A stretch of DNA of 64,000 nt, taken from positions 32,001 to 96,000 of the IMG/VR virus record IMGVR_UViG_3300022924_000016, one strand, 5' to 3'. Under the pieces are notes generated by a model. That model was not told where the DNA came from and searched no databases. It saw only the letters and a program-made list of their open reading frames with translations. A program made the translations under genes and the position numbers. This DNA is from a virus. Shown here piece after piece: positions 8,980 to 64,000 of this stretch (positions are counted from its first letter, which is position 1; each line of letters begins with the position of its first letter).

Positions 8980-9001
8980 TTTAATTTCTTTTTTCTCCCG
9001 A

Positions 9002-9033: not shown

Positions 9034-9077
9034 TCAGTAAATAGAATATTTATCGCTGTTAAACTTTAGTTAAAGTT

Positions 9078-9109
9078 CTTGTGTATTAAATTATATATTA
9101 ATATCTTTG
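9078..9109 (+). promoter_or_regulatory. Bacteroidota promoter, rightward
   Basis: CTTG-N20-TATCTTTG; divergent from the 9002-9033 promoter at the strand switch. Confidence 0.75.
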
Positions 9110-9113
9110 TATA

Positions 9114-26747: not shown

Positions 26748-27070
26748 CAGGACAGATAAGTTTTAAAAAGTACTCTTATGATGACATTGAAAAAACAGCA
26801 CAAGAGAATTACCAAAAACATTATAAATATAAACATTTCAGGATAGGTTCGGACATAGACTTCTTAAAGGACTATTTTAAAATGGAAGCCTATAGAAATT
26901 TCTATGAGTGTCTGGAAGATGAAATAAAAGAAGAGATAAACAATCAAACTCAAAAGAAGTGTAAAAAACACGGATTAAAAGCACATTGCAATCACTATAA
27001 GGAACATAAATGTGATTGGTGTGAAGAATTCAAGATATTAAGAGAATGTGCGCCAAAAATAGAATGGTAA
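26741..27070 (+). CDS. Small Cys/His-rich tail-associated protein
   Basis: 109 aa with C/H cluster CKKH..HCNH..HKCDWC. Confidence 0.55.
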   Translation: MLAGQISFKKYSYDDIEKTAQENYQKHYKYKHFRIGSDIDFLKDYFKMEAYRNFYECLEDEIKEEINNQTQKKCKKHGLKAHCNHYKEHKCDWCEEFKILRECAPKIEW

Positions 27071-46192: not shown

Positions 46193-47942
46193 GTCTTTTC
46201 AGAATGACCCTTATGAGCAGTATACCCGAAAAGTGGCATCGGCAGAAAGTGGAGAAAAAACAACCGCCAAAAATCCTTTCGGTGCGGCGGGACTTTTCCA
46301 ATTTGTACCTTCTACTTGGAGAAATCTTACTCAAAAATATAATCTGAATTACTCTCAAGATGACAGGCTAGACCCCGAAAAATCTAAGCAGGTAATGAAA
46401 CTGTTCACGGAAGAGAATAAAAAACAGCTTTCTAAAAGATTAGGTAGGCAACCTGATGACTACGAACTTTATCTGGCACATGGGTTTGGAGCGGCAGGAG
46501 CGGGAAGATTAATCGAAGGTGTAAATAAGAACCCAAACATAAGAACAGATCAATTTTTCTCTCCCATAATTTTAAAGCAGAACAGAACCCTTTTATATAA
46601 CAAAGACGGTTCTGCAAAAACTTTAGGAGATATAAGCAACCACTTCAAGGCAAAGATGAGTGCGCCTGTAACAAGGTATACAAATAGTGAAAAACAAATA
46701 ACACCACAAGAAACAGTCCAAAACCTTCAAGAAGTTAATAACAGATTAACAGATTTGGTATTTACCAAAGAACTCCCTAATTTTGCAGGAACTTCCTATA
46801 TTCCCGACGAGGATGAAAATATACAAAAACTTGAACAAAAACAGGCGGAAAAAGAAATAATAAGAGAAAAGGAAGTCGTAGTACAACAAGCACCTCAAGA
46901 AGAGTCTCAACCTATTCAAGAAGATACTACAGAATACTATATAGATCCCAATCAAACTTACGCTGAAATAGACAGTTTCTTACAAATGCAAAAAGGGGGA
47001 ACTCTATACGTAGATAATACTAATGACCCAAGATATCAAGCGTACCAAGATAGTTTATATCTATATGAAGAGAACAGACAGACTAAAGAAGATATGCAGA
47101 AAAGACCTTTAGTGTATATGGGAAGCTTGAGAGACGTTGATAATAGTAATAACGGAAGAGTTTTTGATATGAGCGTTACTGAGGATGATAACGGAAGACA
47201 AATCACAGGCATAAACCCAATTTCCCGTACAACTTTTAAGAACACCATAAAAAATCCGATACAAGGTAGACCTGATATAAACACTCAAATTTCAATAGGT
47301 AATTACAAAAAGCCAGAACAAACAGTTACTATAAAAAATAAAGCAGGTTATCAACCAAAAGCCGAAATTTACAAACAACAAAGAGAAATACAAAGTACAG
47401 TCTCAAAAGTAGAGGAGCAAGGAGTAGCCCAAGTTTATAATAACATTGTACCTCAAGCAAGTTTAGAAGTATTACCAAATGCTCAAATACCAAACAGTTT
47501 CAGCCTATCAGAATACAATGAGAGAATGAATAATGCTCAAGGCTATGGTTCGGGTAGGTATGATGAAAACGCAGACATTCTGAAAGCTGAGAGAGCTTTG
47601 GATTATCAAGAGAAATACAACCAAGATATAGAAAGGCGTTACAACAATCCCGAAGCTCAAAATAACCCAAAGGCTCAAGAAAGGTATAATACTTTGAGAA
47701 ATTACCTGAATATAACTCCAAACTATCAAATAGGAGGAGAAATACCGACCTCACCTTTGGGTATGTGGCAATATCCAAATCAAACAGTAAGAGTACCGAG
47801 CGGGAACATAACAATGAATTTTATGAAACACCCTATAGAGGCAATTTCAGAACAAACAGGTGAAAGAGTAGTGTTAAGACCCAATGAAAACTACTCTTTC
47901 AAAAATACAACATCCGTAATAGAAAAACCCATAAGACTATGA
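46170..47942 (+). CDS. Virion cargo protein with N-terminal lytic transglycosylase (SLT) domain
   Basis: AESG catalytic Glu, AAGLFQF, YLAHGFG; Q-rich low-complexity remainder with QxGG motifs. Confidence 0.8.
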   Translation: MPPITTIKSFQNDPYEQYTRKVASAESGEKTTAKNPFGAAGLFQFVPSTWRNLTQKYNLNYSQDDRLDPEKSKQVMKLFTEENKKQLSKRLGRQPDDYELYLAHGFGAAGAGRLIEGVNKNPNIRTDQFFSPIILKQNRTLLYNKDGSAKTLGDISNHFKAKMSAPVTRYTNSEKQITPQETVQNLQEVNNRLTDLVFTKELPNFAGTSYIPDEDENIQKLEQKQAEKEIIREKEVVVQQAPQEESQPIQEDTTEYYIDPNQTYAEIDSFLQMQKGGTLYVDNTNDPRYQAYQDSLYLYEENRQTKEDMQKRPLVYMGSLRDVDNSNNGRVFDMSVTEDDNGRQITGINPISRTTFKNTIKNPIQGRPDINTQISIGNYKKPEQTVTIKNKAGYQPKAEIYKQQREIQSTVSKVEEQGVAQVYNNIVPQASLEVLPNAQIPNSFSLSEYNERMNNAQGYGSGRYDENADILKAERALDYQEKYNQDIERRYNNPEAQNNPKAQERYNTLRNYLNITPNYQIGGEIPTSPLGMWQYPNQTVRVPSGNITMNFMKHPIEAISEQTGERVVLRPNENYSFKNTTSVIEKPIRL

Positions 47943-50900
47943 GCTTCGATAATTTAAAAAAATTCCTTACATTACCAAAAATGCAATTTGGCGGAGGATT
48001 TGATCCAAATAATCCTATGTCAAGATATGATTATACTTCACCATTTCAATTTCCGCAAAGCCAGCAAAATCCGAATTCGGGAATGTCAGTCTATAGTGGG
48101 TATAATCCCGATTTGCAATATCAGCAGGCAAATCCTTATTATGGGATGAGTGTGAATAGCGGATATGCACCAGCCCAAGCTCCCGCACCTGACATAAACT
48201 GGCTTTCGGATTTGACTAAAACCATGAGTCAAAATATCCAATCCGCACAAAACCCAGTAACTCCAATAGCACAAAATACATCAACAGTCCAGACACCCCC
48301 ACTGACGGCATATGATGATGGGTCAGCTCCTCAGCTAGGGGCAATCAGTTCAAATTATAAATCACCCCAAACAAACATATCGAATTTGAATACCCAAGGA
48401 GGTTACCAATTTAATACTTCGGGTAATAACGTAACAGCAGGGCAAGCTTTAGACGCACAAACAAATTATAATAAACAACAGGCAGAACAACCTCTCAAGT
48501 TATTCAATCCGTTTGGAGGAGTAGATGTATCAGCAGCATTACAATACGGTTTCTATAACGCTGGACAAGGGAACGGAGGTCAAGCCACACTAGGTTTTGG
48601 AAAAGGACTATTAGGCTTAGCTAGGCAGGGATTTAGTGCATACGGAGCAGGGAAGGAACAGAGAAACCTTATGAATCAGCAGAATAATCAACCTATTTAC
48701 AACTCAACACCTCTAGAAAAAGGGGGATTTGTAGATTATATGCAAAAAGGAGGGTCGGTAAGTGTAGGGAAGTTTCTAAGTGGTAAATATATTACTGACT
48801 CATCGGATCAAAATGTTGAAATAGAAAAAAATGAATTTGTGTTGAATGCAAAAGATGGCCAAGTACAAAAAGCTATCGGAGAAACTCACGAAAAAGGAGG
48901 AATTAAAACTAATCTGCCCGAAGGTTCGCAAGTTTTATCAGACCATACAAAAATCGGTGCAAAAAATGCTAAAGAGTTATCTAAAGAATTAGATATTAAA
49001 GTGAAGGCTAAAAATACTTTTGCAGATGTTTTAGACAAATATTCAAAGAAAATTGGCGTAGAAAAAAATATAGAAGAGGGAGAAAAATTAGTAAACCAAA
49101 CAGAAGAAACTCTAAAACTTGAAGAAACAGACACTAAACAAATAAATTTAGATTTCATTCAACAAGAAACAGCTAGAATAGAACAAGAAAAAGAAGAATT
49201 GAACACGCAACAACAAGAAGCTTTTAAGACAATTTTCGATAAGCAGGAATCTCAGAAAGGGAACTTTTTACAGGAGGGAGGAGAAACTGTAGCGACAGCT
49301 ACTCAGGAAGAAGAAATAAATCCAAATGATATAGTAGTCCAAGTTCAGCAAGCAGTTGCTCAGGGAGCACCTATTGAAGAAATAGTGAACAATCTTTTGT
49401 CGATGGGATACTCAGAAGACGAAGCATCTCAAATCATACAAGCTTCACAATCAGAACAGCAACCTCAGATGCAAGAGGGAGGCGTAGCAGGAGAGCCAGG
49501 AGCAAGAATAGGTGACTTTTTAAAATCTGCTAATTTAATAGCACAATCAAAAGGGGTAGAGCCTCCAAAACTTGATTTAGAGAAAGGAGATATCACAAAA
49601 AATTGGACAGAGCTTCAAAATTGGTTTGTAAAAAACGCGCCAGAAGAAGTAATAAGCTACTTTGACGAGCAACCTATTACTAACAAAGGTATGGAAATAC
49701 TTTTAAAGAATAATAAGACAGCTCTTAAAAACTTAGGTATTGACACCAATAGAAAACCTAACAGTTTTAGCCTAGAAGAAAAAAGAGCAATCCAAGAAGC
49801 TATTCCTTTAGATGATAAATTTATTTTAGATCAATTTGCAGACGGTAAAGTAGACTACAGATTTCCACAAGTAAGTGCGAATTCACTTTCTTCAATCACT
49901 CCTCAAAATCAAGCAATAAACGCTTCTATGGTTTCGCCAAGTGGTAATGGATTTCAAGAGCAAGAAATGACTGCTCAAGCTACTGATAATAATACTCAAC
50001 AGAATTCCGCGCAGAGAGGAAGAAATGTAATCCCGATGTTACCTGTCCTTGAAGGACTTACCCCTAGTGCCGCGCTTATTCCAAGAGCAGACCAAGTAAG
50101 ATTCAATAGGCTAGAACCTACTTTAAGAACACCAGAGGCTTCAATAGCCGCAATAAATAATCAGACTAATTTTGTAAACCAGCAGGCATTTCAGTCAAAT
50201 CCAAATCTTGCACCTTTCTTAACGGCAACAAATTTAGGAACAACACAACAGTCTGTAAATAAAGCAATAGCAGAAACAGACGCTTATAATGCCGAGGCAG
50301 TTAATAGAGCCAATACTTACAATGCAAATGTAGGCGATAAAGAACAGTTGATGAATATAAATCTCGGTCAAAACTATGAGCAAAGGTTATTCAAGACTAT
50401 TGATAATCAAGAGCAGGCTTGGAGCAGATATCTGGTAAACAAGCAATTGCAAAACAAGCAGAATTGGATGGACGTAAATAATTTGAATTTGACAAATGCA
50501 ATGACGCCTAATTATCAAACTGACGGATCAAATGTGTATTTTTCAAATCCAAGAGATTATTCAACTAGAAGTGAACAGGACATACAGTTTGATAATTGGT
50601 ATAGAAATGCAACACCACAAGAACAGATAGCGTACAGAAATAGCGTAATTTCTAAAAAACAAGATGGTGGGTATATTTATGAGTTTGAAGATGGTGCTCA
50701 GCCTATGACTGACCAGCAAGCTAGAGAAGTGGCACAAGCAACAGGTTTCACAGAAGATTTTGCAAGAGAGTATTTCAGACAGCAAGGGGCAAATCAAACA
50801 CCTCAATATCAGCAAGCTCCTCAAAGACCAAGAGTCAATCTTGAGACGGATATGATTGCAGATATAACTTCGGGAACTAATAGATATACACCTAATGGTG

Positions 50901-51091
50901 GAGTTATCGTAGGAGACTATAAAAAAGTATGGCTCAATAACAGACCTGAGACTTTCACAGCAAGAACCCAGCCACAGGAGGGAAGGGATTTTACATACCT
51001 TTCACCGCAAGATTTTGTTAAATTTCAGCAAAGTCAGAATTACAAGCAGTATAAGTCTGGATACAAGACTTCAAACATAGCTTCTCGATAA
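47939..51091 (+). CDS. Ejection/cargo protein (1050 aa, Q/N-rich)
   Basis: NVEIEKNE..GETHEKGG motif; Gly-rich amphipathic helix; several QxGG motifs; no Cys. Confidence 0.65.
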   Translation: MSFDNLKKFLTLPKMQFGGGFDPNNPMSRYDYTSPFQFPQSQQNPNSGMSVYSGYNPDLQYQQANPYYGMSVNSGYAPAQAPAPDINWLSDLTKTMSQNIQSAQNPVTPIAQNTSTVQTPPLTAYDDGSAPQLGAISSNYKSPQTNISNLNTQGGYQFNTSGNNVTAGQALDAQTNYNKQQAEQPLKLFNPFGGVDVSAALQYGFYNAGQGNGGQATLGFGKGLLGLARQGFSAYGAGKEQRNLMNQQNNQPIYNSTPLEKGGFVDYMQKGGSVSVGKFLSGKYITDSSDQNVEIEKNEFVLNAKDGQVQKAIGETHEKGGIKTNLPEGSQVLSDHTKIGAKNAKELSKELDIKVKAKNTFADVLDKYSKKIGVEKNIEEGEKLVNQTEETLKLEETDTKQINLDFIQQETARIEQEKEELNTQQQEAFKTIFDKQESQKGNFLQEGGETVATATQEEEINPNDIVVQVQQAVAQGAPIEEIVNNLLSMGYSEDEASQIIQASQSEQQPQMQEGGVAGEPGARIGDFLKSANLIAQSKGVEPPKLDLEKGDITKNWTELQNWFVKNAPEEVISYFDEQPITNKGMEILLKNNKTALKNLGIDTNRKPNSFSLEEKRAIQEAIPLDDKFILDQFADGKVDYRFPQVSANSLSSITPQNQAINASMVSPSGNGFQEQEMTAQATDNNTQQNSAQRGRNVIPMLPVLEGLTPSAALIPRADQVRFNRLEPTLRTPEASIAAINNQTNFVNQQAFQSNPNLAPFLTATNLGTTQQSVNKAIAETDAYNAEAVNRANTYNANVGDKEQLMNINLGQNYEQRLFKTIDNQEQAWSRYLVNKQLQNKQNWMDVNNLNLTNAMTPNYQTDGSNVYFSNPRDYSTRSEQDIQFDNWYRNATPQEQIAYRNSVISKKQDGGYIYEFEDGAQPMTDQQAREVAQATGFTEDFAREYFRQQGANQTPQYQQAPQRPRVNLETDMIADITSGTNRYTPNGGVIVGDYKKVWLNNRPETFTARTQPQEGRDFTYLSPQDFVKFQQSQNYKQYKSGYKTSNIASR

Positions 51092-51178: not shown

Positions 51179-53827
51179 ATGGCAAACTATACTTCCAAGG
51201 ACATAACCCTAGCTCCCGTAACAACGAGCATTAATCTGCCTCTGATACAGCAAGTATTGCAGGTAAAACAGGGTACGTACAATCAGGCGGATGCACAAGT
51301 CCAAGCAGGATTATCTTCTCTTGAAAACTTAAAACTTTTAAGACCGCAAGACACAGAATACCTAAACTCTAAGATTAGAGGTATGACGGCTTCTTTGGAT
51401 AATATGCAGGATAAGGATTTATCTAATCCAAATGTAGCTTCAAATTTCTATTCCACTATAAAATCAGTAGCGAGAGACCCATTTGTAGTAGAGGCCGCAT
51501 CAAATACAGTGAAGTATCAACAGTTTCAAGCACAGATGCAAGACATACAGAAGAAAAATCCTGATAAGTTCCATCAGATAAACTATCAGTTTGCTTTAGA
51601 TAAGGCAGGATTAAACCAGTATATGGAAGGAGCTACAAACTCTTTGGGCAGTTTCTCTTATCATAATTATTCCGATTATAATAAAAATCTTTTGGATAGG
51701 ATGAAGACTTTGAAAGATGTCAGAGGCGACAGGGAAGTCCAAATACAAGGAAATGGAGTAAATGGCTATCCTGAAGGAACACTGATAACTAAAAAATTAA
51801 GTGGTTTAACACCTCAAGAAATTGTAGATTATGTTCCAGGCATGATGACTTCAGAAGATGATATGCAGATGAGGATAGAGGGTTGGTGGACAGGTAAGCA
51901 AAATCCGCAACAACTAGACTCAGAATTTTCGCAATACACGGAAAATAAAAAAGAACAGCTTGATTCAAGTATAAATCTATTAGAGACTAAGGTAAATAAT
52001 AAGCAGAATACGGAAGAAGAAAGAGAAACAGCCAGACAGCAATTAAGGGCTTTCAGAGCGGAAAAAGAGAATTTCTTGAAAAATAGCGCAACGGCAACTT
52101 TAGAAGAGAAGGGATATTTTGTCAAAAAGAATGATTATGTAAAAGCATTGGCAACAAGTGCAGGAGCATCTGAGAGTGTAAGTATATCCGAAGACAAAGC
52201 TTACTTTGCACGTCAAAATCTACAGTTAAAAACAGAAGAGCTAGATATAAAAAGAGCAGAGTTAGCACTAAAACAACAAAAAGCTGGAACTACAGGAGGT
52301 CTCTATGGCATGGAAGGTATTAGTGAATCGCCACTCACAGCAGAAACAGCCCCTAATATTGACCCGATAGAACAAGTTACAGAAAACTATAAATTAACAC
52401 AAGGACAGCTTACAGAAAATATCTTAGATATATACAAATCTAACGCTACAGCAAGTGAAATAAAAGACCAATACTCGGCATCTATGAATGCTATGGGATA
52501 CACGCCAGAGGGGAACTTGTTAAATGCAAATAAACAGCCAACTATAGATAAGGCAACGGCTATGTCTAAAGCTTTTGAAGACTCAAAAATGTATTTATCT
52601 AATCCTGATAAAGCAGCGGAGATTGTAAGATTGAAAACATTAGCTGATAATTCAGCCTTAGATTATAATAACACTATAGGCTCCGCTTCCAAAGAACTTT
52701 TTAACAGTGCTCCCCAAAAATACATTAGTGAATTTGTTGAAAAAATAAAAGCTTTGGAGATGGAAGATGACGGATTTATAACAGGATTATTCGGTATTGG
52801 AGGAGGTTCGGAAAGAGTACAGAATTTAACAGCTGAAGCAAGAAAGTTCATAAATGAAGTAGGGGGAGAGAGAAATTTAAAGAGTATAGGAAGCAATAAT
52901 GCGAGACTAGAAAAATTTAGAGACCTTTATGGTAAACTTTCGCAAGAAAAAGAATATAATCTGAATTTTAGATTAGGGAATATGACGTTCGCTAGAGATG
53001 TGGAGGCAAAAGCAGGAGAACTTCTTAAATCTACAGGAGTGATGACTTCTTATGGAAGTGCCAATCAAGCAACTCTTAGTAATGAAAGTCAAAATCAAAG
53101 ACTTATATCAATGATTCCTACAACGGAAGAGAGTAGACCATTTGACCCAAAGAAAAAAATAACAGTATATCAAAGAATTGTAGATGGAAGCCCTTCATTT
53201 GTAGTAGAGCAAAATGTCGGTTTTAATGAGAAAATGGGACAGATTAAAAAAGCAACAGCTGTACTGACTCCTAAAATGGCAGGATATGAATTCCTAAGAC
53301 AAAGCTTAGATATGAATGAATCTTCAAGAGGACTCAGTGCAGAAGTAGCAAAAGAAAAAATAAGTATTGCGAAAAATCCAGCATATATAAAAGATGACGG
53401 AAAGTACGCACCTAAAATTGCAGATTACCTGTTAAAAAACACTCCTCCTAACTATATAGGAAAAGCATTTTTCGCAAACCCAGCAAATTATTTGACTAAA
53501 ACTAATACGGAAGAGGCTTATTCAAATGTTTTAAGGAATAACTTTACTCCCGAACAAATACAGCAAGTTACAGAGCATATTTCAAGCCGTCTATCCCAAT
53601 ATAAAATTGATCTAGAACCCTTGGATGGAGAATGGTATATGTCTCTGGAAGATAAAGAAACAGGTGCAGATTATAGAGGTGGAAAATTAGGACAGAAAAA
53701 TTTAGAAACTCAATTTTTAAACATTGCTCAAAATTATCCTCATACAATAGTCTTAGACTTCTTTTTAAGAGACCTAGCTACAAACAATAAAAATGCATTT
53801 AATAGAATTATGAATAATGGCAGATAA
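51179..53827 (+). CDS. Ejection/cargo protein (882 aa)
   Basis: Helical, Cys-free; lies between cargo genes. Confidence 0.6.
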   Translation: MANYTSKDITLAPVTTSINLPLIQQVLQVKQGTYNQADAQVQAGLSSLENLKLLRPQDTEYLNSKIRGMTASLDNMQDKDLSNPNVASNFYSTIKSVARDPFVVEAASNTVKYQQFQAQMQDIQKKNPDKFHQINYQFALDKAGLNQYMEGATNSLGSFSYHNYSDYNKNLLDRMKTLKDVRGDREVQIQGNGVNGYPEGTLITKKLSGLTPQEIVDYVPGMMTSEDDMQMRIEGWWTGKQNPQQLDSEFSQYTENKKEQLDSSINLLETKVNNKQNTEEERETARQQLRAFRAEKENFLKNSATATLEEKGYFVKKNDYVKALATSAGASESVSISEDKAYFARQNLQLKTEELDIKRAELALKQQKAGTTGGLYGMEGISESPLTAETAPNIDPIEQVTENYKLTQGQLTENILDIYKSNATASEIKDQYSASMNAMGYTPEGNLLNANKQPTIDKATAMSKAFEDSKMYLSNPDKAAEIVRLKTLADNSALDYNNTIGSASKELFNSAPQKYISEFVEKIKALEMEDDGFITGLFGIGGGSERVQNLTAEARKFINEVGGERNLKSIGSNNARLEKFRDLYGKLSQEKEYNLNFRLGNMTFARDVEAKAGELLKSTGVMTSYGSANQATLSNESQNQRLISMIPTTEESRPFDPKKKITVYQRIVDGSPSFVVEQNVGFNEKMGQIKKATAVLTPKMAGYEFLRQSLDMNESSRGLSAEVAKEKISIAKNPAYIKDDGKYAPKIADYLLKNTPPNYIGKAFFANPANYLTKTNTEEAYSNVLRNNFTPEQIQQVTEHISSRLSQYKIDLEPLDGEWYMSLEDKETGADYRGGKLGQKNLETQFLNIAQNYPHTIVLDFFLRDLATNNKNAFNRIMNNGR

Positions 53828-56800
53828 CAACTTAAATGCGCTTATAGATAATAAAACTATTTCGCCAGAACTTCAGGCAGTTGAACAGGATATTAGAACT
53901 AGAGCAAGTACTCCTCAAATAGACCCTTCTAAAACTAACGGAATTATAAGCAATATTAAAACCGATAATGACTATTTTTACAAGGCTCCTATTAACAGTC
54001 CTCAAAAGATAGCATTAGAGTCGAAAAATTACAATATAAATGATGCTTATGCTCAACTTAATGATGGTACCTACATAGCAAAATATGATACTTATAAAGA
54101 AGGAGCAAACAATAATGAGATTCATGCACAAAATCAAGGAACAGGAGAAAAGTGGCTTAATGGCTTAGCTAAATTTGGAGGCAAAACTCTAAACGCAGTT
54201 ATAGGCGGAACAGCAGGAGTTGTTTATGGAGCAGGGGCGGGAATAGCAGATTGGAAATTTGACTCTGTTTACGATAATAATTTTTCAAACTGGCTAGGAG
54301 ATTTAGATACCAAAATGAACTACAATCTTCCTAACTACTACACGCAACAGGAAACACAAAAAGGATTGGGAGGACAATTATTCACTTCTAATTTTTGGGC
54401 GGATAAAGTTCTAGGAGGATTGTCTTTTACAGCAGGAGCAATTGTATCAGAGGGTATATGGGCTTATGCAACAGGAGGAACTTCTCTAGCAACCACTACC
54501 GCAAGATGGTCTACAAGAACAGCGGGTATGGCAAGAATAGCTAGCGGGACTTCAAAGTTTTCAAGACTTTTAAAAAATTCACTCACAGTAGGAGAGGATG
54601 TAGCAAGAGTAGGTACGGGATTGGTAGATGATTCTATAAACGTGGGAAGAGCCGTAGCTTTTGGTAAGGCGGGAGATGCTTTAAACACTTTAAGATTTAC
54701 AATGACTTCGGCAGGATATGAAGCCTCCGTTGAAGCCTTGCAGTATAAAAAAGAACAAGAGGAAAACTTTTATAGAAATTTTCAAGAAAAAAACGGAAGA
54801 CAGCCCGATCAAGAAGAGATAACAGCTTTTCAAGAAAATCTAAGTTCCTCTGCAAATGCAGTTTTTGGAGTGAATATGGCTTTGGTGGGAAGTTCTAATT
54901 TGGTAACTCTAGGAAGAGTATTCAATCTAAAATCACCTGTAAAAACAGGTTTTGGAGAGATGTACAACAGAGCCTTGTATGGAATAGGAAAAGCAACGCC
55001 TTCAAGACTCCAATCCATTAATAGAAGAATATTACCCTTTGTTCAAAATGCAGTAACTGAGGGACTTTATGAAGAAGGTGGTCAATCGATTACTTCAGCT
55101 ACGGCAGGAAAATGGCTAGAACATGCTTACGATACAAACAACACAAAAGACTCTTTTGATTTAGCAGGGGCTTTATATGAAAACATTTCTCACCAATATG
55201 GTTCAAAAGAAGGATGGGTTGAGAATGGAGTAGGTATAATCATTGGTCTTTTAGGAGAGGCTGGGACAGGAAATACAAGAGGAGGAATAAGCAGGCAAGT
55301 TCAAGAATTTGAGAACCGTTCAAAATTAAATGAAACTTATACTTCAAAAGCATTATCGGAGCATTTCTTGATGATGAACCGTATTAACGGGTTTAATAAA
55401 CAATCAGAAGATGCGCAAAAAAGAGGCAATCTTACAGAAGCTAGAATAGCACAAGACGGAGTAATATTTTCACTTTTAAACAATCGTTACCAATTAGGAG
55501 ATTCTGTTTCAGATGTAGGCTTAGATATTGAAAAAGCTTTGGGAACAGTTACGCAAGACCAGCTAACAGAAATGGGAGTAGAAACTGATTTAGACACTTG
55601 GAAACAAGAACAGTCAACAGCGTTCTCAGAAGTTGCAAAATCTTTCAAAAAGAACAGACAGTTTGCAGAATATATAATAGGAAGAAATCCTGTTGCGGGA
55701 ATACAGGAATTAGAGTCAGTTAACCAACTCAATGGAATTACGGACGAAAATGGAAACTCTCGAATAAATAATCAAGAAGCTCTTATACAAAGTCTAGCTT
55801 TTACAATGATGGGTGGTCAAAGATCGCATACCACCATGAAGGAAGCTGTTCAAGAGATGTCTGAGATTTTAGATTATGAAAAAGTAAAGGCTTTAGATAC
55901 AATATCTAGCTTAGAAACAGTAACTCAAGAAAAAAGAAATCAAGTAAATATTGCTATAAACAGAAGCAATTCTTTAGAGGAGCAAAGAGGAAGACTTGTA
56001 GAACAGTTAAGAAATATTCAGGAAACCACGCAAGGGGATACTGACACAGGAACTAAAGTTTTGAGGTTATCTGACAGGCTTGCAAAACTTACAAACCTGA
56101 TTGATTCTAATAATACAGAATTACAGCAACTTGCAGATGAAGTAAATCTAAATAACAAAACTTTAGAACAGACCACAGGCGTAAACCTAAATCAAGGTTT
56201 AGATATTCAGAGTATCAGTGTAGAGGACTTAAAAAACCTTGATTCAAATATCAAAAATTTAGGGTCTGTAATGGATGCTATAAAAGCTTCTAATCCTGAA
56301 AATTCTGCCAGACTTGAAGCAATTTTAGAAGAGTACAAGAACTCTAGAAAAACATTTGGAGCTTATCAGTCAACTGTATTAGCTTTCAGGGATGGAAAAG
56401 TAAACATTGATAACATCAATACTTTAGTTGGGCGCAAAGTCTTAAAAAAGAACAAAAACTTAGATTCGGCAACAAAAGAGTGGCTGTCAGAAATTTTAGG
56501 AAATTACTCAAAACAAGCTGTAGACGCTTTAGATGAGTTAACTAAAATTAACAACAGAACCACTGTTATTTCAAACGAGTCTATAGTAGATAAGAGAAGA
56601 AGAGGTGATACTTTATCAGAAGAGGAACAAACGTACTACAACGAAAATAAGACGGAGATAGATACTTTTATGAAAAGAGAGCCTATACTTCCAGTTGTAC
56701 CCTTACCAACAGCTAAAACTAAACTTCAATACCTGAGAGAAAGACTTGCTAATTTAGTTTCTAGGTCTAATAACTCCTTGACTTTTATTGGGACTTCAAC

Positions 56801-59069
56801 AGACGAATTTCTTTTAGAAAAACCAACACAAGCGGAAGTAGCAGAATACCAAAATCTATTAAGAGGAGAAACGGGGGAAAAAGCACAACTTTATCAAAAA
56901 CTTGACAATTTATATGAAACACTTTTATCCAATGGGAACAGTGAATCAGAAGCAGAAAGACTAGCTTTAGAATCGCTAACAGAGCAAGAAAGAAATCTTT
57001 TAAGACAGAGAAGTCCGAAAAGAAGAGAAGTGGAAAACTCTTCTGAATTAATAGTAGGCCAAAGGGTAAGCACTCTGACCGACCAAGGAACGGTTACTTC
57101 AATTGATGGAGAATTGGTAACTATTGACTTAGACCAAAAAGGAACATTGACCGCAAACCCAAGACTTGTAGAAATTTTTACCGAGCCTTCAGTAGTAAAC
57201 GTAGATAGATTAGAGCTGTTAAGGGAAAAATTATCAAATTGGAAAGTTTTAGACAGTTTCATAAATGAGGAAGGACTAACAATGGCTGACCTTGCAGAAT
57301 TGATTCAACAGCAACAGCAGAACATTTCAGAGCAAGAAACCATAACTGAAATCACAGAAGATGATTCTTATGCTATGACTCAAGAATCTCAAGCAGGAGA
57401 AAAACTTGATGATTATACTCTGGCACAAAATGTCACAGGAAATGCCACAATAAAGAGAAATAAAGACGGCTCTGTGACTTTGCATCACATATCAGCACAA
57501 TCTCTGGTAAATATCATAGGGGAGCCTTTCCAAGCTACAAGAAAAGGCAAGCCTATTGATATATCGGAAATCGCAATAGGCGATATAGTTACGACAGAAA
57601 GTGGATTAATGTTTTCAGTAGAGTCAGGAAACATCTTGAAAACGAGGAGTGAAGCATTTGATAACATCCCTCTTTTAGTAGTAAGAAGTGCCTCTACAAG
57701 CTGGACTTATGCAGATTTATACTATTTTAACGGTTCGGAGTATGTAAAGAAACCTTCAGACTTTTTTGAAGATATCCAAGCAGATGAGATTTATAATCTT
57801 GAACAAGGCGCGCCTATAAGATTTGAAATTGACAGGCAGGACAGTTACACAAAACAGCTTTTAGATAAATACAAAAAATCACCCACGGAAGAAAATCGAA
57901 AAGCTTTAACAGACGGTATTAAAATTTATTTAGTTTCAAAGGGTAGAAGAATTTCAACTTTAAAAGGAGAAAGAGGCGCATCACCTGATAATTTCAAGCT
58001 TTTAAGAGAAAAGGCTTTTGAATTAGCTATACAGGACAGCTATGAAGCAGACCTCCAAGCAACTTCAACAGTTTCGGCAGTATTTTTAGGGAGCCCTCAA
58101 TTTTTCATTTCAGAAGACGGGCAGTTAGAATCAAGACCATTCACAGAAACTTCATTAGATAAAGTTTTGACTAAAGGGTATATTTTAAATGGTGAAGTCG
58201 TAACATCAGAAGACCTACCACAAGTAAATACTTCCTACGTATCTAAGATTTCAAGAAAATACCCTCAAAGAAAAATGCCCTTGGTGGTTGTAAAAAGAGG
58301 TGAAAATTACGTAGCTTTGCCAATATTTTTGAATAAATCACCTTTAGGGCAAAGAGGATTAGACATGGTGGAGAATGCCATAGAAACAGCCACGAGTCCA
58401 ATAGAAGTTGCAAAGAACTTGAATGCACTGATTAACCAAGAAGGTATCAGAACTGAAAAGGTACTACCGCAAGAAGTTACAGATGAAAATCTTGAAAGAA
58501 TCAGAACAGCTTTTCAAGAACATTTAATTTTCACAACAGCAGATGAAATAGCTTCACAAGATTATAACAAATCTAATCTTTTAGTGGATGCTCAGATGTA
58601 TATTGACGCAGATAATCTAGAACAGGTAATCAATGCTCCAAAAGTAAGAATAGATATTCAAAATATGCTTTTCAATCAAGAAGCAACCTTTGATACATCT
58701 GATGTCAAAACTTCGGTGGAAAATGAATTAGATACTTTAGCAAAAGACCTTTATAACGATTTCATAAGAAATGCTTCCGCAACTTACGTAAATTCCAAAG
58801 GAGATATCATAGAAAATTCCTATACGGATGCCTTTGACGAAGAAAGTATGATGGAAGGGAGTTCACACCTTGATAAACTTCACAACATACGAATTTTAAG
58901 AGAAGCTTTCAAAGTGGATTTCTCTAAAAATAAGATTTTGAGGGATGCTGTAGGAAACGACAAGATTGAAAGAATAAAAATTCTTTTCGGTATTTTAGAT
59001 AACATCAACAAACAAGTAAAGCCTAAAGAAGATATTCTGAAATCGGGCAATAACAACACTAAATGTTAA
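53817..59069 (+). CDS. Large ejection protein (1750 aa) with Gly-rich membrane-type helices
   Basis: QGTGEKWLNG..GGTAGVVYGAG, NFWADKVLGG, EASVEA and EGLYEEGGQ motifs; the only Cys is the last residue. Confidence 0.7.
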   Translation: MADNNLNALIDNKTISPELQAVEQDIRTRASTPQIDPSKTNGIISNIKTDNDYFYKAPINSPQKIALESKNYNINDAYAQLNDGTYIAKYDTYKEGANNNEIHAQNQGTGEKWLNGLAKFGGKTLNAVIGGTAGVVYGAGAGIADWKFDSVYDNNFSNWLGDLDTKMNYNLPNYYTQQETQKGLGGQLFTSNFWADKVLGGLSFTAGAIVSEGIWAYATGGTSLATTTARWSTRTAGMARIASGTSKFSRLLKNSLTVGEDVARVGTGLVDDSINVGRAVAFGKAGDALNTLRFTMTSAGYEASVEALQYKKEQEENFYRNFQEKNGRQPDQEEITAFQENLSSSANAVFGVNMALVGSSNLVTLGRVFNLKSPVKTGFGEMYNRALYGIGKATPSRLQSINRRILPFVQNAVTEGLYEEGGQSITSATAGKWLEHAYDTNNTKDSFDLAGALYENISHQYGSKEGWVENGVGIIIGLLGEAGTGNTRGGISRQVQEFENRSKLNETYTSKALSEHFLMMNRINGFNKQSEDAQKRGNLTEARIAQDGVIFSLLNNRYQLGDSVSDVGLDIEKALGTVTQDQLTEMGVETDLDTWKQEQSTAFSEVAKSFKKNRQFAEYIIGRNPVAGIQELESVNQLNGITDENGNSRINNQEALIQSLAFTMMGGQRSHTTMKEAVQEMSEILDYEKVKALDTISSLETVTQEKRNQVNIAINRSNSLEEQRGRLVEQLRNIQETTQGDTDTGTKVLRLSDRLAKLTNLIDSNNTELQQLADEVNLNNKTLEQTTGVNLNQGLDIQSISVEDLKNLDSNIKNLGSVMDAIKASNPENSARLEAILEEYKNSRKTFGAYQSTVLAFRDGKVNIDNINTLVGRKVLKKNKNLDSATKEWLSEILGNYSKQAVDALDELTKINNRTTVISNESIVDKRRRGDTLSEEEQTYYNENKTEIDTFMKREPILPVVPLPTAKTKLQYLRERLANLVSRSNNSLTFIGTSTDEFLLEKPTQAEVAEYQNLLRGETGEKAQLYQKLDNLYETLLSNGNSESEAERLALESLTEQERNLLRQRSPKRREVENSSELIVGQRVSTLTDQGTVTSIDGELVTIDLDQKGTLTANPRLVEIFTEPSVVNVDRLELLREKLSNWKVLDSFINEEGLTMADLAELIQQQQQNISEQETITEITEDDSYAMTQESQAGEKLDDYTLAQNVTGNATIKRNKDGSVTLHHISAQSLVNIIGEPFQATRKGKPIDISEIAIGDIVTTESGLMFSVESGNILKTRSEAFDNIPLLVVRSASTSWTYADLYYFNGSEYVKKPSDFFEDIQADEIYNLEQGAPIRFEIDRQDSYTKQLLDKYKKSPTEENRKALTDGIKIYLVSKGRRISTLKGERGASPDNFKLLREKAFELAIQDSYEADLQATSTVSAVFLGSPQFFISEDGQLESRPFTETSLDKVLTKGYILNGEVVTSEDLPQVNTSYVSKISRKYPQRKMPLVVVKRGENYVALPIFLNKSPLGQRGLDMVENAIETATSPIEVAKNLNALINQEGIRTEKVLPQEVTDENLERIRTAFQEHLIFTTADEIASQDYNKSNLLVDAQMYIDADNLEQVINAPKVRIDIQNMLFNQEATFDTSDVKTSVENELDTLAKDLYNDFIRNASATYVNSKGDIIENSYTDAFDEESMMEGSSHLDKLHNIRILREAFKVDFSKNKILRDAVGNDKIERIKILFGILDNINKQVKPKEDILKSGNNNTKC

Positions 59070-59073
59070 TAAA

Positions 59074-61371
59074 TTGAGCTGTAATATAATAAGAGAAAAT
59101 GGAGAAATAAGAGTAGTGACGGATCAAGATACTCCGTCATTGCTTTTCCAGGAGCTAAAAGAAAAATTCACCCAAGAAGAAGCTTTAGAAATCTATAAGG
59201 CTTCTAAATCAGAGGCTTTTGAAACTGTCAACAGAGCTAAGAATGCTTTATTATACTCAGTGAACCAAACTGATGTAAGACTTTCTAGGCAAATCAATGG
59301 AAACTCAATCTCCTATATTCCGACAATCAGAGGAAAAAGAATAGGAACTTTGAGGATAAAAGGGGACAGGGTAGATATGATAACTATTTATGACGCTTTC
59401 AAAGGCAAAGGATACGGAAAGAGTCTTTACAAGCAAGTGGCTAAAGATTTATTTCAGAGAGGAGTACAGCTAAAAAGCGATAATGCTTCAAGTCAAGATG
59501 ATTTGAATGTGTGGGAGTCCCTTGTGAGAGATAATCTTGCCGAGCAGACACCGGACGGCAGATATCAGTTCCTACTCCAAAACAGCTACCCAAACGGCGA
59601 ACCCTCAATGCAAAGCGTCTTAGAATTCCTAAGAAATCAAAACCGCACACAAAGGGAACTTGACACAGAGGAAAGAATAGAACTTAAAAATTTATCTTTA
59701 GGATTTCAAGGAGATTTAAAAGCGGAGATGAACAGGGTATTTTATGACCAAGAAAATTTTTTTACAATAGTCCCGCAAAAAATGCAATCTTTATATTCGC
59801 AATATGAAATTGACAGGATTTTGAAATCACCAAGCCTGCAAAATCAAATAAAAGAAAGTTTAGAAGCATTTCAAAATACGGAATTTGATTTAGTTACAGA
59901 ACAAGAGGTGCCACAAGAACAGTTAGTAAAATCAAGCACAATAGGAAAGTTTGGAAAAGCCCTTTATGAGAATCCAAACCGTCTAAAACAAGATTTGATG
60001 GAGGAAATTGCTGGCGTAGAGGAAGACATGTTTGAAGAAAATCCTTTTATAACTTTAGAAGAATCACAAGAATTTGTAAAAGCAAGAGTTTTAGCAGATG
60101 TAGACGGAACGATAGTAGAGCCTAATCTAGGAGACCGTTTAGCGATTTCGGCTACAATCTTAAAGAATCCTTATAAGGCTGTTTCTGCAATTGTCAAAAT
60201 TACAAATATCTCAGATGAAACTCTTCTAGAAAATCCACAAGAAACTTATAAAGCTCTGAGCAACATTGAAAACGAAGCCTTGAAAATGGGGATAGATGTC
60301 ATAGGAATAAAAGACCAAGCAGATAATCCAACTCTGAAACCTTTCTTAAATGCTTTAGGGGGTGTTATGGAAAATCCCATAGAAGAAAACTTGGCAACAT
60401 TTTCTAAACTCTACTCAGAATTCTTTCCAAGGCAAATCCAAGAAACAAAAGCAATAAGACAGCCTAATGACAGAGATTATATCTACCTAAGAACAGCTTT
60501 GAGTGAGGGTGAAGTTTTCAATCAAATAGGGGCGATAAAAAAAGCGGAAAACGTTTATGTTCAAGTTAATGATAAAACTTTAGAAGAACTCTATGAAATA
60601 GCTTCATATTACAACCCAAGCCTCACACAACAGGAGAACCAAAGACAGGCTCTGAGAATAGAATCGCCCGAAAGAGAAACAGCAGAAAAAATAAATTTAT
60701 TTAAAACTATTTTAGGTTTCGAGGGTGTAAATGAGGGAATTAGTGAGGGTATGAACGAAACTGCTTTCACAGGAAACTACGAATACCTTACAAATGATTT
60801 CGTGGCAGAATTCAATATAAAATCCCTAAGAGAAAAGAAAAAGAATTCTCCAATGTGGCTCAATTTCTATTCAAATTTTGAAATTAATGAGCAAGGTATA
60901 AATTTAAAATATACAGACGACTCAACACTGTCAACAGTAGAAGAGTTAGCTGATGAAAATTTAAGGCAGTACTCTTTGATTTCAAAACAAATGCCGAATC
61001 TGAACCAAACTACTTTAGATGAGAATCCAGATATATCTCAAAAAGAAAGAGATTTTTACGTGAACAATCCACAGATGGCACCTCTGATGCAAAGTCCCAC
61101 AATAGTAGATTCAGAAACCCTAATATCGGATAGTCAAGAAAGGTTCACTAAAAGACAAGATGGAAGTTTATGGGAAAATGTGTTCACTCAAAATGGCAAA
61201 AGCTTATTTAAAAGACAAATGGTAAACAGATCGCAATACAATACCTTTGGAAACCCAAAACCACAATTTAATGAATATGACTTTGACTTGAAAGCAAGCA
61301 TGTCAGATAATTCAAATGTTAAAGATTCCCTAAAAGCAAAAAATATATTAAAAGAAAGTTTTGATTGTTAA
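59074..61371 (+). CDS. Ejection protein (765 aa) with N-terminal GNAT acetyltransferase domain
   Basis: FKGKGYGKSLY acetyl-CoA motif, then LKSD...VWESL; Cys only at position 3 and the C-terminus. Confidence 0.65.
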   Translation: MSCNIIRENGEIRVVTDQDTPSLLFQELKEKFTQEEALEIYKASKSEAFETVNRAKNALLYSVNQTDVRLSRQINGNSISYIPTIRGKRIGTLRIKGDRVDMITIYDAFKGKGYGKSLYKQVAKDLFQRGVQLKSDNASSQDDLNVWESLVRDNLAEQTPDGRYQFLLQNSYPNGEPSMQSVLEFLRNQNRTQRELDTEERIELKNLSLGFQGDLKAEMNRVFYDQENFFTIVPQKMQSLYSQYEIDRILKSPSLQNQIKESLEAFQNTEFDLVTEQEVPQEQLVKSSTIGKFGKALYENPNRLKQDLMEEIAGVEEDMFEENPFITLEESQEFVKARVLADVDGTIVEPNLGDRLAISATILKNPYKAVSAIVKITNISDETLLENPQETYKALSNIENEALKMGIDVIGIKDQADNPTLKPFLNALGGVMENPIEENLATFSKLYSEFFPRQIQETKAIRQPNDRDYIYLRTALSEGEVFNQIGAIKKAENVYVQVNDKTLEELYEIASYYNPSLTQQENQRQALRIESPERETAEKINLFKTILGFEGVNEGISEGMNETAFTGNYEYLTNDFVAEFNIKSLREKKKNSPMWLNFYSNFEINEQGINLKYTDDSTLSTVEELADENLRQYSLISKQMPNLNQTTLDENPDISQKERDFYVNNPQMAPLMQSPTIVDSETLISDSQERFTKRQDGSLWENVFTQNGKSLFKRQMVNRSQYNTFGNPKPQFNEYDFDLKASMSDNSNVKDSLKAKNILKESFDC

Positions 61372-61389
61372 TAAAGTTTACTATATTTG
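61360..61389 (+). promoter_or_regulatory. Bacteroidota promoter for the methyltransferase
   Basis: TTTG-N18-TATATTTG, 16 nt before the ATG. Confidence 0.6.
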
Positions 61390-61405
61390 CTGAAAATATA
61401 AAAAT

Positions 61406-62326
61406 ATGGATAGAGGAATAAATGTTTTTGGAGCTTTTGATGGAATGAGTAATGGTCAAATAGCTTTAGAAAAACAAGGAATTAAAGTAAATAAATATTA
61501 TGCTTCTGAAATTGAAAAAGAGCCTATAGTTATAACGCAAAAAAATTATCCAAACACAATTCAATTAGGAAGTATTACCGAAATAGAGAATATTGATTGG
61601 CCAGCAAGGAAGATTGATCTATTTATAGGAGGAAGCCCTTGTCAAAATTTCAGTTTTGCAGGCTCTGCACAAGGATTGAGACAAGATAATATAGAAATTA
61701 CAAATCTAGAAAAGTATAATAAATTAAAACAAGAGAATTTTGTCTTTGAGGGACAATCTTATTTGTTTTGGGAATATGTTAGACTTTTAAAAGAGGTTCA
61801 AAAAGTGAATCCTCAAGTAAAGTTCCTCTTAGAAAATGTCAAGATGGCAAAAAAATGGGAGAATGTAATTACAGAAGCTTTGGGTGTAAAACCAAAAGAA
61901 ATAAATTCAAAACACTTTTGTGCCCAAAATCGACCTAGACTATATTGGACTAACATACAAATAGACAGTTTACCAAATAATGGCGATGTTATAAAAGACA
62001 TACTAGAAAAAGATGCAGATTTTAATTTCAACTATGCAGGATGGATGCTAAATAAATGGGGTGAAAAAAGAAGATTGGATCAATTCTTTAATGTAGATAA
62101 TAAAGCTAGTTGTTTAACTGCAAACATGGCAAAAGGTCAAAAACCAAGCTACTGTGTAAATGACGAAAAAGCAATACATAAATTTACAGTTAATGAATGC
62201 GAAAGGCTCCAAACAGTACCCTTTGATTACACGAAAGGTGTTTCTAATGGAGCAAGATATAAAATGCTCGGTAACGGTTGGACAGTAGATGTCATAGCCC
62301 ATATATTTAAAAACTTAAAACAATAA
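61406..62326 (+). CDS. dcm: C5-cytosine DNA methyltransferase
   Basis: FDGMSNG (I), GGSPCQ (IV), LLENV (VI), QNRPRLYW (VIII), ECERLQ (IX), YKMLGNGW (X). Confidence 0.93.
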   Translation: MDRGINVFGAFDGMSNGQIALEKQGIKVNKYYASEIEKEPIVITQKNYPNTIQLGSITEIENIDWPARKIDLFIGGSPCQNFSFAGSAQGLRQDNIEITNLEKYNKLKQENFVFEGQSYLFWEYVRLLKEVQKVNPQVKFLLENVKMAKKWENVITEALGVKPKEINSKHFCAQNRPRLYWTNIQIDSLPNNGDVIKDILEKDADFNFNYAGWMLNKWGEKRRLDQFFNVDNKASCLTANMAKGQKPSYCVNDEKAIHKFTVNECERLQTVPFDYTKGVSNGARYKMLGNGWTVDVIAHIFKNLKQ

Positions 62327-62327
62327 A

Positions 62328-64000
62328 ATGGCTTGTGAAATAATTTATAAGAATGGTAGACAAGTTGGAGTAAACGCTCCTGATGGCAGACCTTCTTTAG
62401 TTTTCAATCAAATACTCAATATCCCACATATCCAAGACTTTCAAGAAGCTCTAAAAGGGTATACAAATCTTTTAGCGGATAATAACAATGAAGAATCTCC
62501 AATCAGCTTTCAAAACCAAGGTCAAGAATTTCAAACTTTAAAAGAGGCTCTTAAAAACAGCCAACCAAATTCTGAAATCCAAGTAGTTACAAACGGAAAG
62601 TCTTTTATGACAATTGACACTACAATAAATCCTCAGACTCGTTCAGGACTTTTAAATTCCCTAATCAAAGAAGACATTCTGACGGGAAATTCTTTTTTAG
62701 ACGTTGACGGCGCAAAAGTCTTAGAAGTAACAGGAAACAACGAACAGGAAAAAGCGGTCTACGCCGATGTAGCCAGAACAGTTTCAAAACGATATAAAGG
62801 TGCATTTTCAGCCTTAGTTGGACAGGATAATAATATTACTTTCAGAGAAAGACAGGAAGTTCCCAAATCAGAAACTTTTACCCAGCTTACTCAAAGATTT
62901 GATGAACCAACAGCAGTTTTTATCAAGACTTTAGAAGAAATAAGTTTGGAGACTAATGCAAATAATTCTGCTTTAGAAGAGATTCAAATCATTCCTGAGA
63001 ATCAGCTACAAGAAAAACTATTACAGCTACTAAACAAGTTAGGCGTAAAGACTACATCCATTGAAAAGTGGGCGGAAAAATACGCTCAAAAGAATGGTTA
63101 TGAACCATCGGCAAAAGCTCTAGCAGATTTGGCAAATAACATCGTAGCCTTTAAAGATGGTATTATCACGCAAGCAGATTTAACAGAGGAAGTGAGTCAC
63201 TTTATTATTGCAACTTTAGATGAGGAGCAGATAGCAAACCAAAAAAGAAATGTACATAGAACTAAAGAGTGGGCGGAATTTGCAGAACAATACTTCGAAA
63301 TCTACTCAGAGACTTTAGAGGGAGAAGGCTTAGAAGATGCTGTCAGAGAAGAAATTTTAGGAAAGGTTTTAGCTAATTCACTTTTAGATAATTTTGCAAG
63401 AGAAGGTGAAACTACTTTGGAAGGCGGTATTGTTGCAACTTTAAGAAACTTCTTCCAAGACTTCTTTAATAGAGTTTATGACTTCTTTCAGCCAAACTAT
63501 CAAACCCAACTAGAAACATTCACAGAACAAGTTTATAGAGACCTTATGAATGACTCCTTGGACGTAGATGTAAGAAACAAGGAGAACAAGTCTTATACGC
63601 TCTATAATTCAGCAGGACGTACAGCTTTAGCCCAAACTATTCAGAAGTCTTATGAAACACTTTTGAATCAGCAATATGCTCTAAGAAATTCTTCGGCGAA
63701 TAAAAATACCTTAAACAAATTAAAGCAGACAATTGCACTTACAGATGAAGCTTCCTTGAAAAATTCAACTCTACAATTAGTAGCAGTTGCAAATTCTCAA
63801 GCAAATTCACTTTTGAAATCTTTAGAAACCGCCGATAAAAATTCAAGACACTTCACGTCAGAAGAAAATGGAGTATTTCAATCAACAGTTTCAAGACTTG
63901 CTCCGATGCTAAGACAAATCAGAGAAAGCATAAATGACAAGGCTATTGCAAAACAGATCGATGATGTCCTGCAAAAGATTTCTACAATTGAAGGAAGAGT
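62328..64000 (+). CDS. Large ejection protein, runs off the window end; degenerate zincin-like motif
   Basis: Hand translation MACEIIYKNGRQVGVNAPDGRPSLVFNQI... open for 557 codons; LTEEVSHF followed about 50 aa later by REEILGK; not in the ORF track. Confidence 0.85.
   Translation, partial: MACEIIYKNGRQVGVNAPDGRPSLVFNQILNIPHIQDFQEALKGYTNLLADNNNEESPISFQNQGQEFQTLKEALKNSQPNSEIQVVTNGKSFMTIDTTINPQTRSGLLNSLIKEDILTGNSFLDVDGAKVLEVTGNNEQEKAVYADVARTVSKRYKGAFSALVGQDNNITFRERQEVPKSETFTQLTQRFDEPTAVFIKTLEEISLETNANNSALEEIQIIPENQLQEKLLQLLNKLGVKTTSIEKWAEKYAQKNGYEPSAKALADLANNIVAFKDGIITQADLTEEVSHFIIATLDEEQIANQKRNVHRTKEWAEFAEQYFEIYSETLEGEGLEDAVREEILGKVLANSLLDNFAREGETTLEGGIVATLRNFFQDFFNRVYDFFQPNYQTQLETFTEQVYRDLMNDSLDVDVRNKENKSYTLYNSAGRTALAQTIQKSYETLLNQQYALRNSSANKNTLNKLKQTIALTDEASLKNSTLQLVAVANSQANSLLKSLETADKNSRHFTSEENGVFQSTVSRLAPMLRQIRESINDKAIAKQIDDVLQKISTIEGR

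Follow-up and report, generated by a model that had tools for sequence, protein, structure and literature searches.

Terminal cysteines may link consecutive giant cargo proteins end to end in a crAss-related phage

The DNA analysed here, referred to as the window, is a stretch of 64,000 nucleotides (nt; positions 32,001 to 96,000) from the IMG/VR virus record IMGVR_UViG_3300022924_000016, and the subject of this study is a block of large cargo proteins near its 3' end, in particular three giant proteins that we call A, B and C. Only four cysteine residues are found in the whole block, and each of them stands at a protein end. From sequence comparison, we propose with a probability of roughly 0.7 that these terminal residues link consecutive cargo proteins end to end. 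Taken as a whole, the observations are probably best explained by three Cys-purged cargo proteins joined by two intermolecular links between terminal Cys, which would probably be disulfides: one would join Cys3 of B to the last residue of A, the other Cys3 of C to the last residue of B. In what follows, a Cys near the C-terminus is called C-type and one near the N-terminus N-type. The source record (141 kb, 96% complete) belongs to a marine podophage of the phi4:1-like, crAss-related kind, with a Bacteroidota host. Its closest cultured relatives are the Cellulophaga phages phi4:1 and phi17:2 (Lightbulbvirus, 145 kb), which share an identical gene order at 27-33% protein identity, and a megablast search of the cargo region against the phage collection gave no match. 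Since the phi4:1 homologues gp035, gp037 and gp038 were detected in virions by tandem mass spectrometry and since "virion structural protein" families of PHROGs were matched, A, B and C are read as internal virion proteins that are most likely packaged and injected.

In protein A (1750 amino acids (aa); 53817..59069, plus strand), a polar tail (..SGNNNTKC) terminates in the sole Cys of the protein, its last residue (codon 59064-59066), and the N-terminus is free of Cys. Protein B (765 aa; 59074..61371, plus strand) has two, Cys3 (59080-59082) and the last residue, Cys765 (61366-61368). Protein C begins on the same strand at 62328, leaves the window at 64000 and continues to the window-equivalent position 67892 (G000:C1:94328-99892); over the 1854 aa that it has in the genome, its sole Cys is Cys3 (62334-62336), and the C-terminus of this full-genome open reading frame (ORF) has none. 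Together with three upstream proteins of 590, 1050 and 882 aa, which have no Cys at all, the six large cargo proteins contain 4 Cys in 6,891 aa (0.06%), against a background of 138 Cys in 12,592 residues (~1.1%) in the other window ORFs of at least 150 aa, at which about 75 would be expected in the cargo six. The probability that four randomly placed Cys would all fall within 3 residues of the 12 termini is (36/6891)^4, or about 7e-10. An earlier note on this DNA had given the same counts, had seen no further Cys in the roughly 550 residues of C visible to it, and had judged the arrangement hard to ascribe to chance. All of this was borne out, for C over the whole protein and for the last point also by conservation among homologues. 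The note needs amending in two details. It read B as beginning MSC, and the position of Cys3 holds, but the start codon is actually TTG, a start backed by close homologues, in which MSC, MAC or VSC opens the protein at the matching place. It also took C to follow B directly, and a methyltransferase gene lies between them.

The terminal residues are conserved, and other Cys are purged, throughout the three families. With B as the query, an exhaustive HMMER search of representatives clustered at 50% identity gave 306 relatives, and 156 B-family proteins were analysed. Nearly all of them have exactly two Cys, one at position 3-6 and one within the last 0-3 residues; among the exceptions, P0027 is a fusion of B with C and the majority seem to be fragments. 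Internal residues make up 21 of the 321 Cys in the 151,901 residues of this family, and 17 of the 21 lie in two proteins. In an alignment of 91 B sequences (~25% identity to the query), the columns of C3 and C765 are the only invariant ones. All ten homologues of A (39-97% identity) have a single Cys, placed in the last 0-2 positions. Among 49 homologues of C (30-94% identity, 1832-3119 aa), a Cys at position 3-6 is present in 47, being the sole Cys in 45 and accompanied by one internal Cys in 2; none has a C-terminal Cys, and internal Cys number 4 in the 107,403 residues of the family. The two proteins lacking a Cys at position 3-6 are P0204 and P0205, and the start of P0204, whose Cys is at position 33, may be miscalled. 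An alignment of homologues, which the earlier note had named as a check on the terminal Cys, hence came out in its favour. The depth of the B family is owed to the exhaustive search: word-indexed homologue searches were shallow (7 matches for B and 10 for A), and locus searches returned a single close relative with the B protein alone and 4 loci with a 24-sequence B alignment.

The arrangement can be followed well beyond the close relatives of the window phage. We compared the cargo blocks of 22 phages, comprising 36 junctions, from Lightbulbvirus, Fipvunavirus, Steigviridae, Intestiviridae and Suoliviridae, together with csAssE-Sib, a human gut phage outside the named families. In these 22 phages, A or its positional equivalent carries Cys of the C-type alone and the last protein of the N-type alone, with both types on any protein in the middle. 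Cys was found on both sides of all junctions (36/36), and each genome has as many N-type as C-type Cys, with 2, 4 or 6 terminal Cys in all. The polarity is equally strict: wherever the outer ends are visible, the N-terminal 10 residues of A and the C-terminal 10 of C are free of Cys. The three-protein form is seen in phi4:1 (gp038, 1957 aa, last residue Cys; gp037, C4 and C516 of 517; gp035, 1914 aa, C3 only), in crAss001 (gp47, C2339 of 2341; gp50, C5 and C2404 of 2412; gp49, C5 only) and in phi14:2 (gp078, 1797 aa, last residue Cys; gp077, C3 and C2179; gp076, C3 only), where gp077 is the 2180-aa virion RNA polymerase "gp66" (PDB 6VR4). It is found likewise in DAC15, cr111_1, IAS virus and the IMG/VR loci L001, L008 and L009. 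In csAssE-Sib, a 2208-aa protein with Cys as its last residue and a 752-aa protein with C5 and C751 are accompanied by a C gene in two parts (281 and 1885 aa), of which the 281-aa part begins MTSTC. The 100-nt overlap of these two ORFs (L003, OR575929.1, 37407-43809) looks like the result of a frameshift and is probably an annotation error. The pattern also survives separation of the genes, with A on the opposite strand in crAss001, DAC15 and IAS and C 9 kb away in csAssE-Sib.

The strongest evidence for pairing is the behaviour of these residues when cargo genes fuse or split. Fusions of B with C keep the N-type Cys of B and lack both junction Cys. One such protein (P0027, locus L005; 2380 aa) has only C3, and its neighbour A (1985 aa) has its sole Cys as the last residue; the junction pair is missing from P0201 as well; p-crAssphage gp44 (4070 aa) has C3 and no C-terminal Cys, next to gp45 with C1956 of 1957; and the crAss002 fusion gp33 (L016, NC_055828.1, 11088-23825) has MSC at annotated residues 33-35, its start probably being called 32 codons too early. 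Fusions of A with B retain the C-type Cys only, and the N-type Cys is found on the protein that follows. Fpv3 gp32 (4287 aa) has one Cys, at 4286, and is followed by gp33 with C3, and five Suoliviridae (cr1_1, cr118_1, cr52_1, cr50_1 and cr7_1) have A-B fusions too. The cargo genes of two of these, cr7_1 (L023) and cr52_1 (L020), contain 6-148 in-frame stops under translation table 11, which suggests stop-codon recoding; in cr7_1 the depletion of Cys is relaxed (13 Cys per protein) and the terminal Cys are still kept.

Fission has the opposite outcome. In three independent splits of B (L006, L007 and L010), Cys is present on both new ends. L010 has the order A/B1/B2/C, with C1581 of 1582 in A, C3 and C606 in B1 (607 aa), C3 and C425 in B2 (425 aa) and C3 in C (2520 aa), that is, three C-type and three N-type Cys. 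In L006, B1 (300 aa) has C3 and C300 and is followed by a TnsA-like gene and then by B2, which begins MAC; L007 has Cys at both new ends in the same way. The gene in L006 (10897-11913) encodes a TnsA-like endonuclease N-domain and lies exactly at the split between B1 and B2, and a 371-aa Cys-rich ORF (8134-9249) lies between A and B1 in L010. Mobile-looking insertions could be the cause of the fissions of B.

Terminal Cys that number 2, 4 or 6, with as many N-type as C-type residues, fit pairwise heterotypic links in the order A~B~C, and argue against a single four-Cys metal site, homodimers or attachment to a third partner. Two other arrangements were considered and rejected. A circularised B with an A-C pair is unparsimonious given the pattern of fusion and fission, and a single Zn(Cys)4 clasp joining A, B and C does not agree with genomes that carry 2, 4 or 6 terminal Cys. 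The earlier note had proposed that the C-terminal Cys of each protein pairs with Cys3 of the next. This pairing is well supported by the invariance of the residues, their equal numbers, their loss at fusions and gain at fissions, the Cys-free outer ends and the precedent of phage A4 described below; what it had overlooked is the methyltransferase gene.

A bond of this kind has so far been experimentally seen in the structure of one apparently unrelated podophage only. In the electron cryomicroscopy structure of the cyanopodophage A4 virion, Cys1715 of gp27 is disulfide-bonded to Cys5 of gp26, the C-terminal helix of gp27 being seated in a cleft of gp26 within the pre-ejectosome, and the bond is treated as a local stabiliser (PMC12002296, PNAS 2025). 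We checked the sequences of this phage (Anabaena phage A-4L) and found only Cys1715 in gp27 (1717 aa), only Cys5 in gp26 (1114 aa) and no Cys in gp29. As in the window phage, consecutive giants carry lone Cys, 2 residues from the C-terminus in the upstream protein and at position 5 in the downstream one; the corresponding residues of the window phage are a lone Cys at the extreme C-terminus upstream and a lone Cys at position 3 downstream. The gene layout is also alike, with a small ejection protein, a lytic transglycosylase/peptidase protein and then two giants. However, A4 has one link between two proteins whereas the window phage has two junctions among three, and A4 belongs to another phage family (Saffermanviridae, 42 kb). 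No homology of A, B and C to A4 gp27 or gp26 was detected (BLASTP E >0.7; hhalign probability 0.1 for A and C). Because sequence and profile similarity to gp27 and gp26 are lacking, the window system is one that works like gp27-gp26 and is not a member by descent.

Descent is traceable within the Crassvirales. The window block has the layout of the RNA polymerase cargo module of crAss001 (gp47/gp50/gp49) and phi14:2 (gp65/gp66/gp67; GenBank gp078/gp077/gp076), which follows the muzzle and small cargo genes as it does here. A is homologous to crAss001 gp47, the rule of terminal Cys is shared, and the proteins of this module are found in virions by mass spectrometry. In tblastn searches, A matched phi4:1 gp038 (E 5e-63) and, over residues 340-533, crAss001 gp47 (E 5e-6), which is annotated as a "putative RNA-polymerase subunit". 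In contrast to that module, the DFDxD catalytic motif of the two-barrel polymerases was not found in A, B or C, and B is short (765 aa) with a GNAT-like domain. A Pfam search of A, B and C gave no domain, and phmmer searches of A and C against the PDB (6VR4 included) gave no match. As no RNA polymerase motif was found in them, we call A, B and C cargo proteins and not polymerase subunits, although a divergent polymerase is possible.

The cargo of crAss001 consists of gp45, gp46, gp47, gp49 and gp50, is predicted to be folded and alpha-helical, gave no ordered core density for gp47, gp49 and gp50, and was proposed to be ejected N-to-C with partial unfolding; purified virions contain many inter-protein disulfides in the tail, including those of ring and hub proteins (PMC10172136). 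In some crAss-like phages the three cargo proteins are fused into one polyprotein (bioRxiv 10.1101/2020.03.07.982082). Neither the crAss001 atlas nor the polyprotein paper mentions the cysteines of the cargo. In N4 and DEV, the ejected proteins are known to be purged of Cys, which has been put down to their crossing of the periplasm (PMC11445570). The depletion in the window cargo (0.06% against ~1.1% in other ORFs) is that of ejected proteins, and it resembles that of the Schitoviridae (N4 gp50-52 and DEV gp71-73), whose proteins leave via the tail, cross the periplasm and are strongly purged. The Schitoviridae proteins differ in having essentially no Cys at all and in that the giant cargo is one polypeptide (the N4 virion RNA polymerase, ~3,500 aa), whereas the window cargo is split and keeps Cys at its junctions. 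Our literature search, in a limited collection, turned up nothing on cysteines or disulfides of crAss cargo proteins, and no paper on the general rule, on how widely crAss-like phages follow it or on what becomes of it when genes fuse or split. To these systems the window adds a phi4:1-like lineage with a short, GNAT-bearing middle protein, together with three cases of fission among relatives.

The anatomy of the protein ends suggests how such a link might be built. In an AlphaFold2 model of B (mean predicted local distance difference test score (pLDDT) 83), Cys3 stands immediately before a beta-hairpin (residues 5-15), which is followed by three helices to residue 58, the GNAT-like domain (~66-170), a core and finally a disordered tail (739-765, pLDDT <50) that ends in Cys765. 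A model of the first 557 residues of C is similar, with a hairpin (4-16) and then helices, and the N-termini of B and C align (M-[SA]-C-x-I-I-x-x-N-G ... P-S-L). Around the C-type Cys, the tails of A and B share only the Cys itself, and acidic residues often precede that of B (..E-x-F-D-C). The C-type Cys would accordingly be carried at the tip of a flexible polar tail and the N-type Cys just before the hairpin of an N-terminal module of ~55 residues. Given the precedent of A4 and the disulfides seen in crAss001 particles, the bond would most likely be a disulfide, formed in the assembled or released particle, as observed for gp27-gp26 in A4. The links would create one covalent unit of ~4,370 residues, a post-translational equivalent of the fused polyprotein, and would secure 1:1:1 co-packaging and a fixed order. 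The unit might be used for ordered N-to-C ejection, followed by reduction in the host cytoplasm, and the extreme terminal position and the flexible tail, as modelled, seem to favour a joint able to pass a narrow channel.

The N-terminal module is also of interest for what follows it. The GNAT-like domain of B (59269-59583, plus strand; motif F-K-G-K-G-Y-G) was recognised by a Foldseek search with the B model, in which GNAT proteins were the only matches, weak but consistent (E ~1e-2, template modelling score to target 0.4-0.56). In many B homologues the match to B starts only downstream of this region, which may therefore be an optional insert. Similarly, many C homologues (P0172-P0215) have 250-1,300 extra residues straight after the ~55-aa module, with precomputed Pfam matches to PF18760 and PF18838, which we take to be polyvalent-protein domains, and to PF18819, PF01743+PF01966 and PF03059. 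These inserts look like swappable effector domains on an injected chain. Because unrelated domains are inserted right after it in C homologues, the module behaves as a portable "hitch". More tentatively, peptide bonds and terminal disulfides might be interchangeable joints of one redox-cleavable thread of 4,000-9,000 residues. A single, near-linear chain would then leave the capsid N-to-C via the tail and be split into its working parts in the cytoplasm, where host thiol reductases would cut it, and the module would serve as a general hitch by which effector domains (GNAT, ADP-ribosyltransferase and others) are added to the chain.

Several points weigh against linkage by disulfides or against the use proposed for it. 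The cytoplasm of the host is a reducing environment, and a search of the genome for thioredoxin and glutaredoxin genes found none, so oxidation would be spontaneous and would take place after assembly or after lysis; a search for Erv/ALR thiol oxidases gave no match, but control genomes were equally blank. The anoxic habitat of the gut relatives disfavours disulfides, which is a real difficulty for gut phages. The C-terminal tail of B is disordered in the AlphaFold2 model, so a docked complex that precedes the bond is not evident. The rule itself has its rough edges: the C-type Cys of crAss001 gp50 lies 8 residues from the end, crAss002 conforms only if its annotated start is shifted by 32 codons, and the C gene of csAssE-Sib has to be read as split by a frameshift. 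Finally, the A4 bond staples a folded ring, so linear threading need not follow from a link, and by analogy the function may be in assembly or stoichiometry instead of threading.

This last point leads to the alternative nearest to end-to-end linkage, which keeps the bond and differs in function only. The shared Cys pairs would staple a folded, symmetric pre-ejectosome or core body like that of A4, serving assembly stability or DNA spooling and not a thread, and the links would have to break before or during ejection. The only structure showing such a bond is of that kind (PMC12002296), the cargo of crAss001 is predicted to be folded and alpha-helical (PMC10172136), and B and the N-terminal part of C were modelled as folded domains. 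Nevertheless, Cys at the extreme ends and a disordered tail suit a near-linear joint and exceed the needs of a staple, and Bayfield et al. saw no ordered core density for crAss001 gp47, gp49 and gp50. We consider a folded staple a minority possibility and somewhat unlikely. A metal bridge, in which the paired terminal thiols and nearby acidic residues bind Zn, Fe or Cu, is a good deal less probable. It could form in a reducing cytoplasm and persist in anoxic habitats, many relatives being gut phages of strict anaerobes, and it would agree with the acidic residues often found before the C-type Cys of B, with the failure to find a phage thioredoxin or glutaredoxin, and with a thiol-oxidase search that was blank in the controls too. 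However, two thiols alone make a weak site, neither end has a further conserved ligand-type residue (His or Cys), 2, 4 or 6 terminal Cys per genome exclude a single Zn(Cys)4 clasp, and the sole solved case, A4, is a disulfide.

If there were no chain, each terminal Cys could pair with the corresponding residue in another copy of its protein, giving a homodimer, or bind some third component, for instance the portal, the capsid or a tail ring. The tail ring and hub proteins of crAss001 are rich in disulfides, and a lone near-terminal Cys occurs on upstream cargo in p-crAssphage (gp47, Cys856 of 857) and crAss002 (gp30, Cys550 of 557). Yet such partners leave unexplained the equal numbers of N-type and C-type Cys in each genome, the Cys-free N-terminus of A and C-terminus of C, and the gain of Cys at both ends of splits and their loss from both ends at fusions, and we regard them as improbable. 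Least probable of all is an origin in chance, composition or gene calling, or an unrelated role as a processing nucleophile or lipidation site. Start codons are indeed set by ORF callers, and that of crAss002 had to be re-read, but the Cys is invariant over ~300 diverse proteins at 25-40% identity from which all other Cys are purged, and the conservation data effectively refute an explanation by chance or artefact. As to the unrelated roles, no signal peptide or lipobox precedes Cys3, and a nucleophile would need Cys as residue 1.

The surroundings of the three giants complete the picture of the locus, in which G+C is 30-37% and all large ORFs from 12.6 kb on are on the plus strand. Upstream of A lie, on that strand, the 590-aa protein (46170..47942), with an N-terminal SLT lytic transglycosylase domain (PF01464, E 1.2e-9), the 1050-aa protein (47939..51091), which matches the virion structural protein family phrog_36695, and the 882-aa protein (51179..53827), which matches phrog_32131. 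Homologues of the 882-aa protein in L001, L006 and L008 are also free of Cys, and phi4:1 gp040, a virion protein by mass spectrometry with 0 Cys, is taken as the counterpart of the 1050-aa protein by gene order. The gene between B and C (61406..62326, plus strand) encodes a C5 DNA methyltransferase of 306 aa (PF00145) with 5 Cys. It is found as well in L001, a 92%-identical relative, and is absent from L008, where B and C are adjacent; it therefore looks like an insertion into the cargo operon and lies outside the chain. Ahead of the six large ORFs is a Cys-rich protein of 2458 aa with 36 Cys (phrog_37948, virion structural). Further upstream of the cargo block, two large plus-strand ORFs have N-terminal clusters of Cys, at positions 2, 12, 17 and 33 in one (27046-29775) and at 2, 6, 8, 11, 17, 20 and 28 in the other (34891-36678), and these clusters are common to phi4:1 gp047 and gp046 (annotated as tail fibre protein). 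They may anchor these proteins, by metal or by disulfide, to the tail hub, which contains disulfides in crAss001. A 164-aa ORF of the structural block (26253-26747, plus strand) ends ..ESINCESC, in which the last residue and position -3 are Cys, and thus offers a further case of a C-terminal Cys. In Intestiviridae, upstream cargo with a lone near-terminal Cys is represented by the p-crAssphage (L011) protein gp47, whose 857 aa include only C856, and by crAss002 gp30, with Cys550 of 557; p-crAssphage gp48 ends ..YRCGGHRR and crAss002 gp30 ends ..FRCGGKKKIA. The near-terminal Cys of these proteins may be an extra link that is absent from the window phage.

Crassviruses are the most abundant phages of the human gut, and it has yet to be explained how a protein load exceeding 600 kDa is packaged in them and then expelled along a narrow tail (PMC10172136, PMC13434306). 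If end-to-end linkage is true, a conserved covalent tether would explain how three or four separately encoded giants could be held at a fixed ratio and in a fixed order, why cargo genes fuse and split freely, and why every other cysteine is purged. For annotation, a lone Cys at position 3-6 or within the last 0-3 residues offers a rule by which chain members, their true starts and their order in the chain can be recognised. In addition, the N-terminal module could be exploited to load phage particles with foreign proteins.

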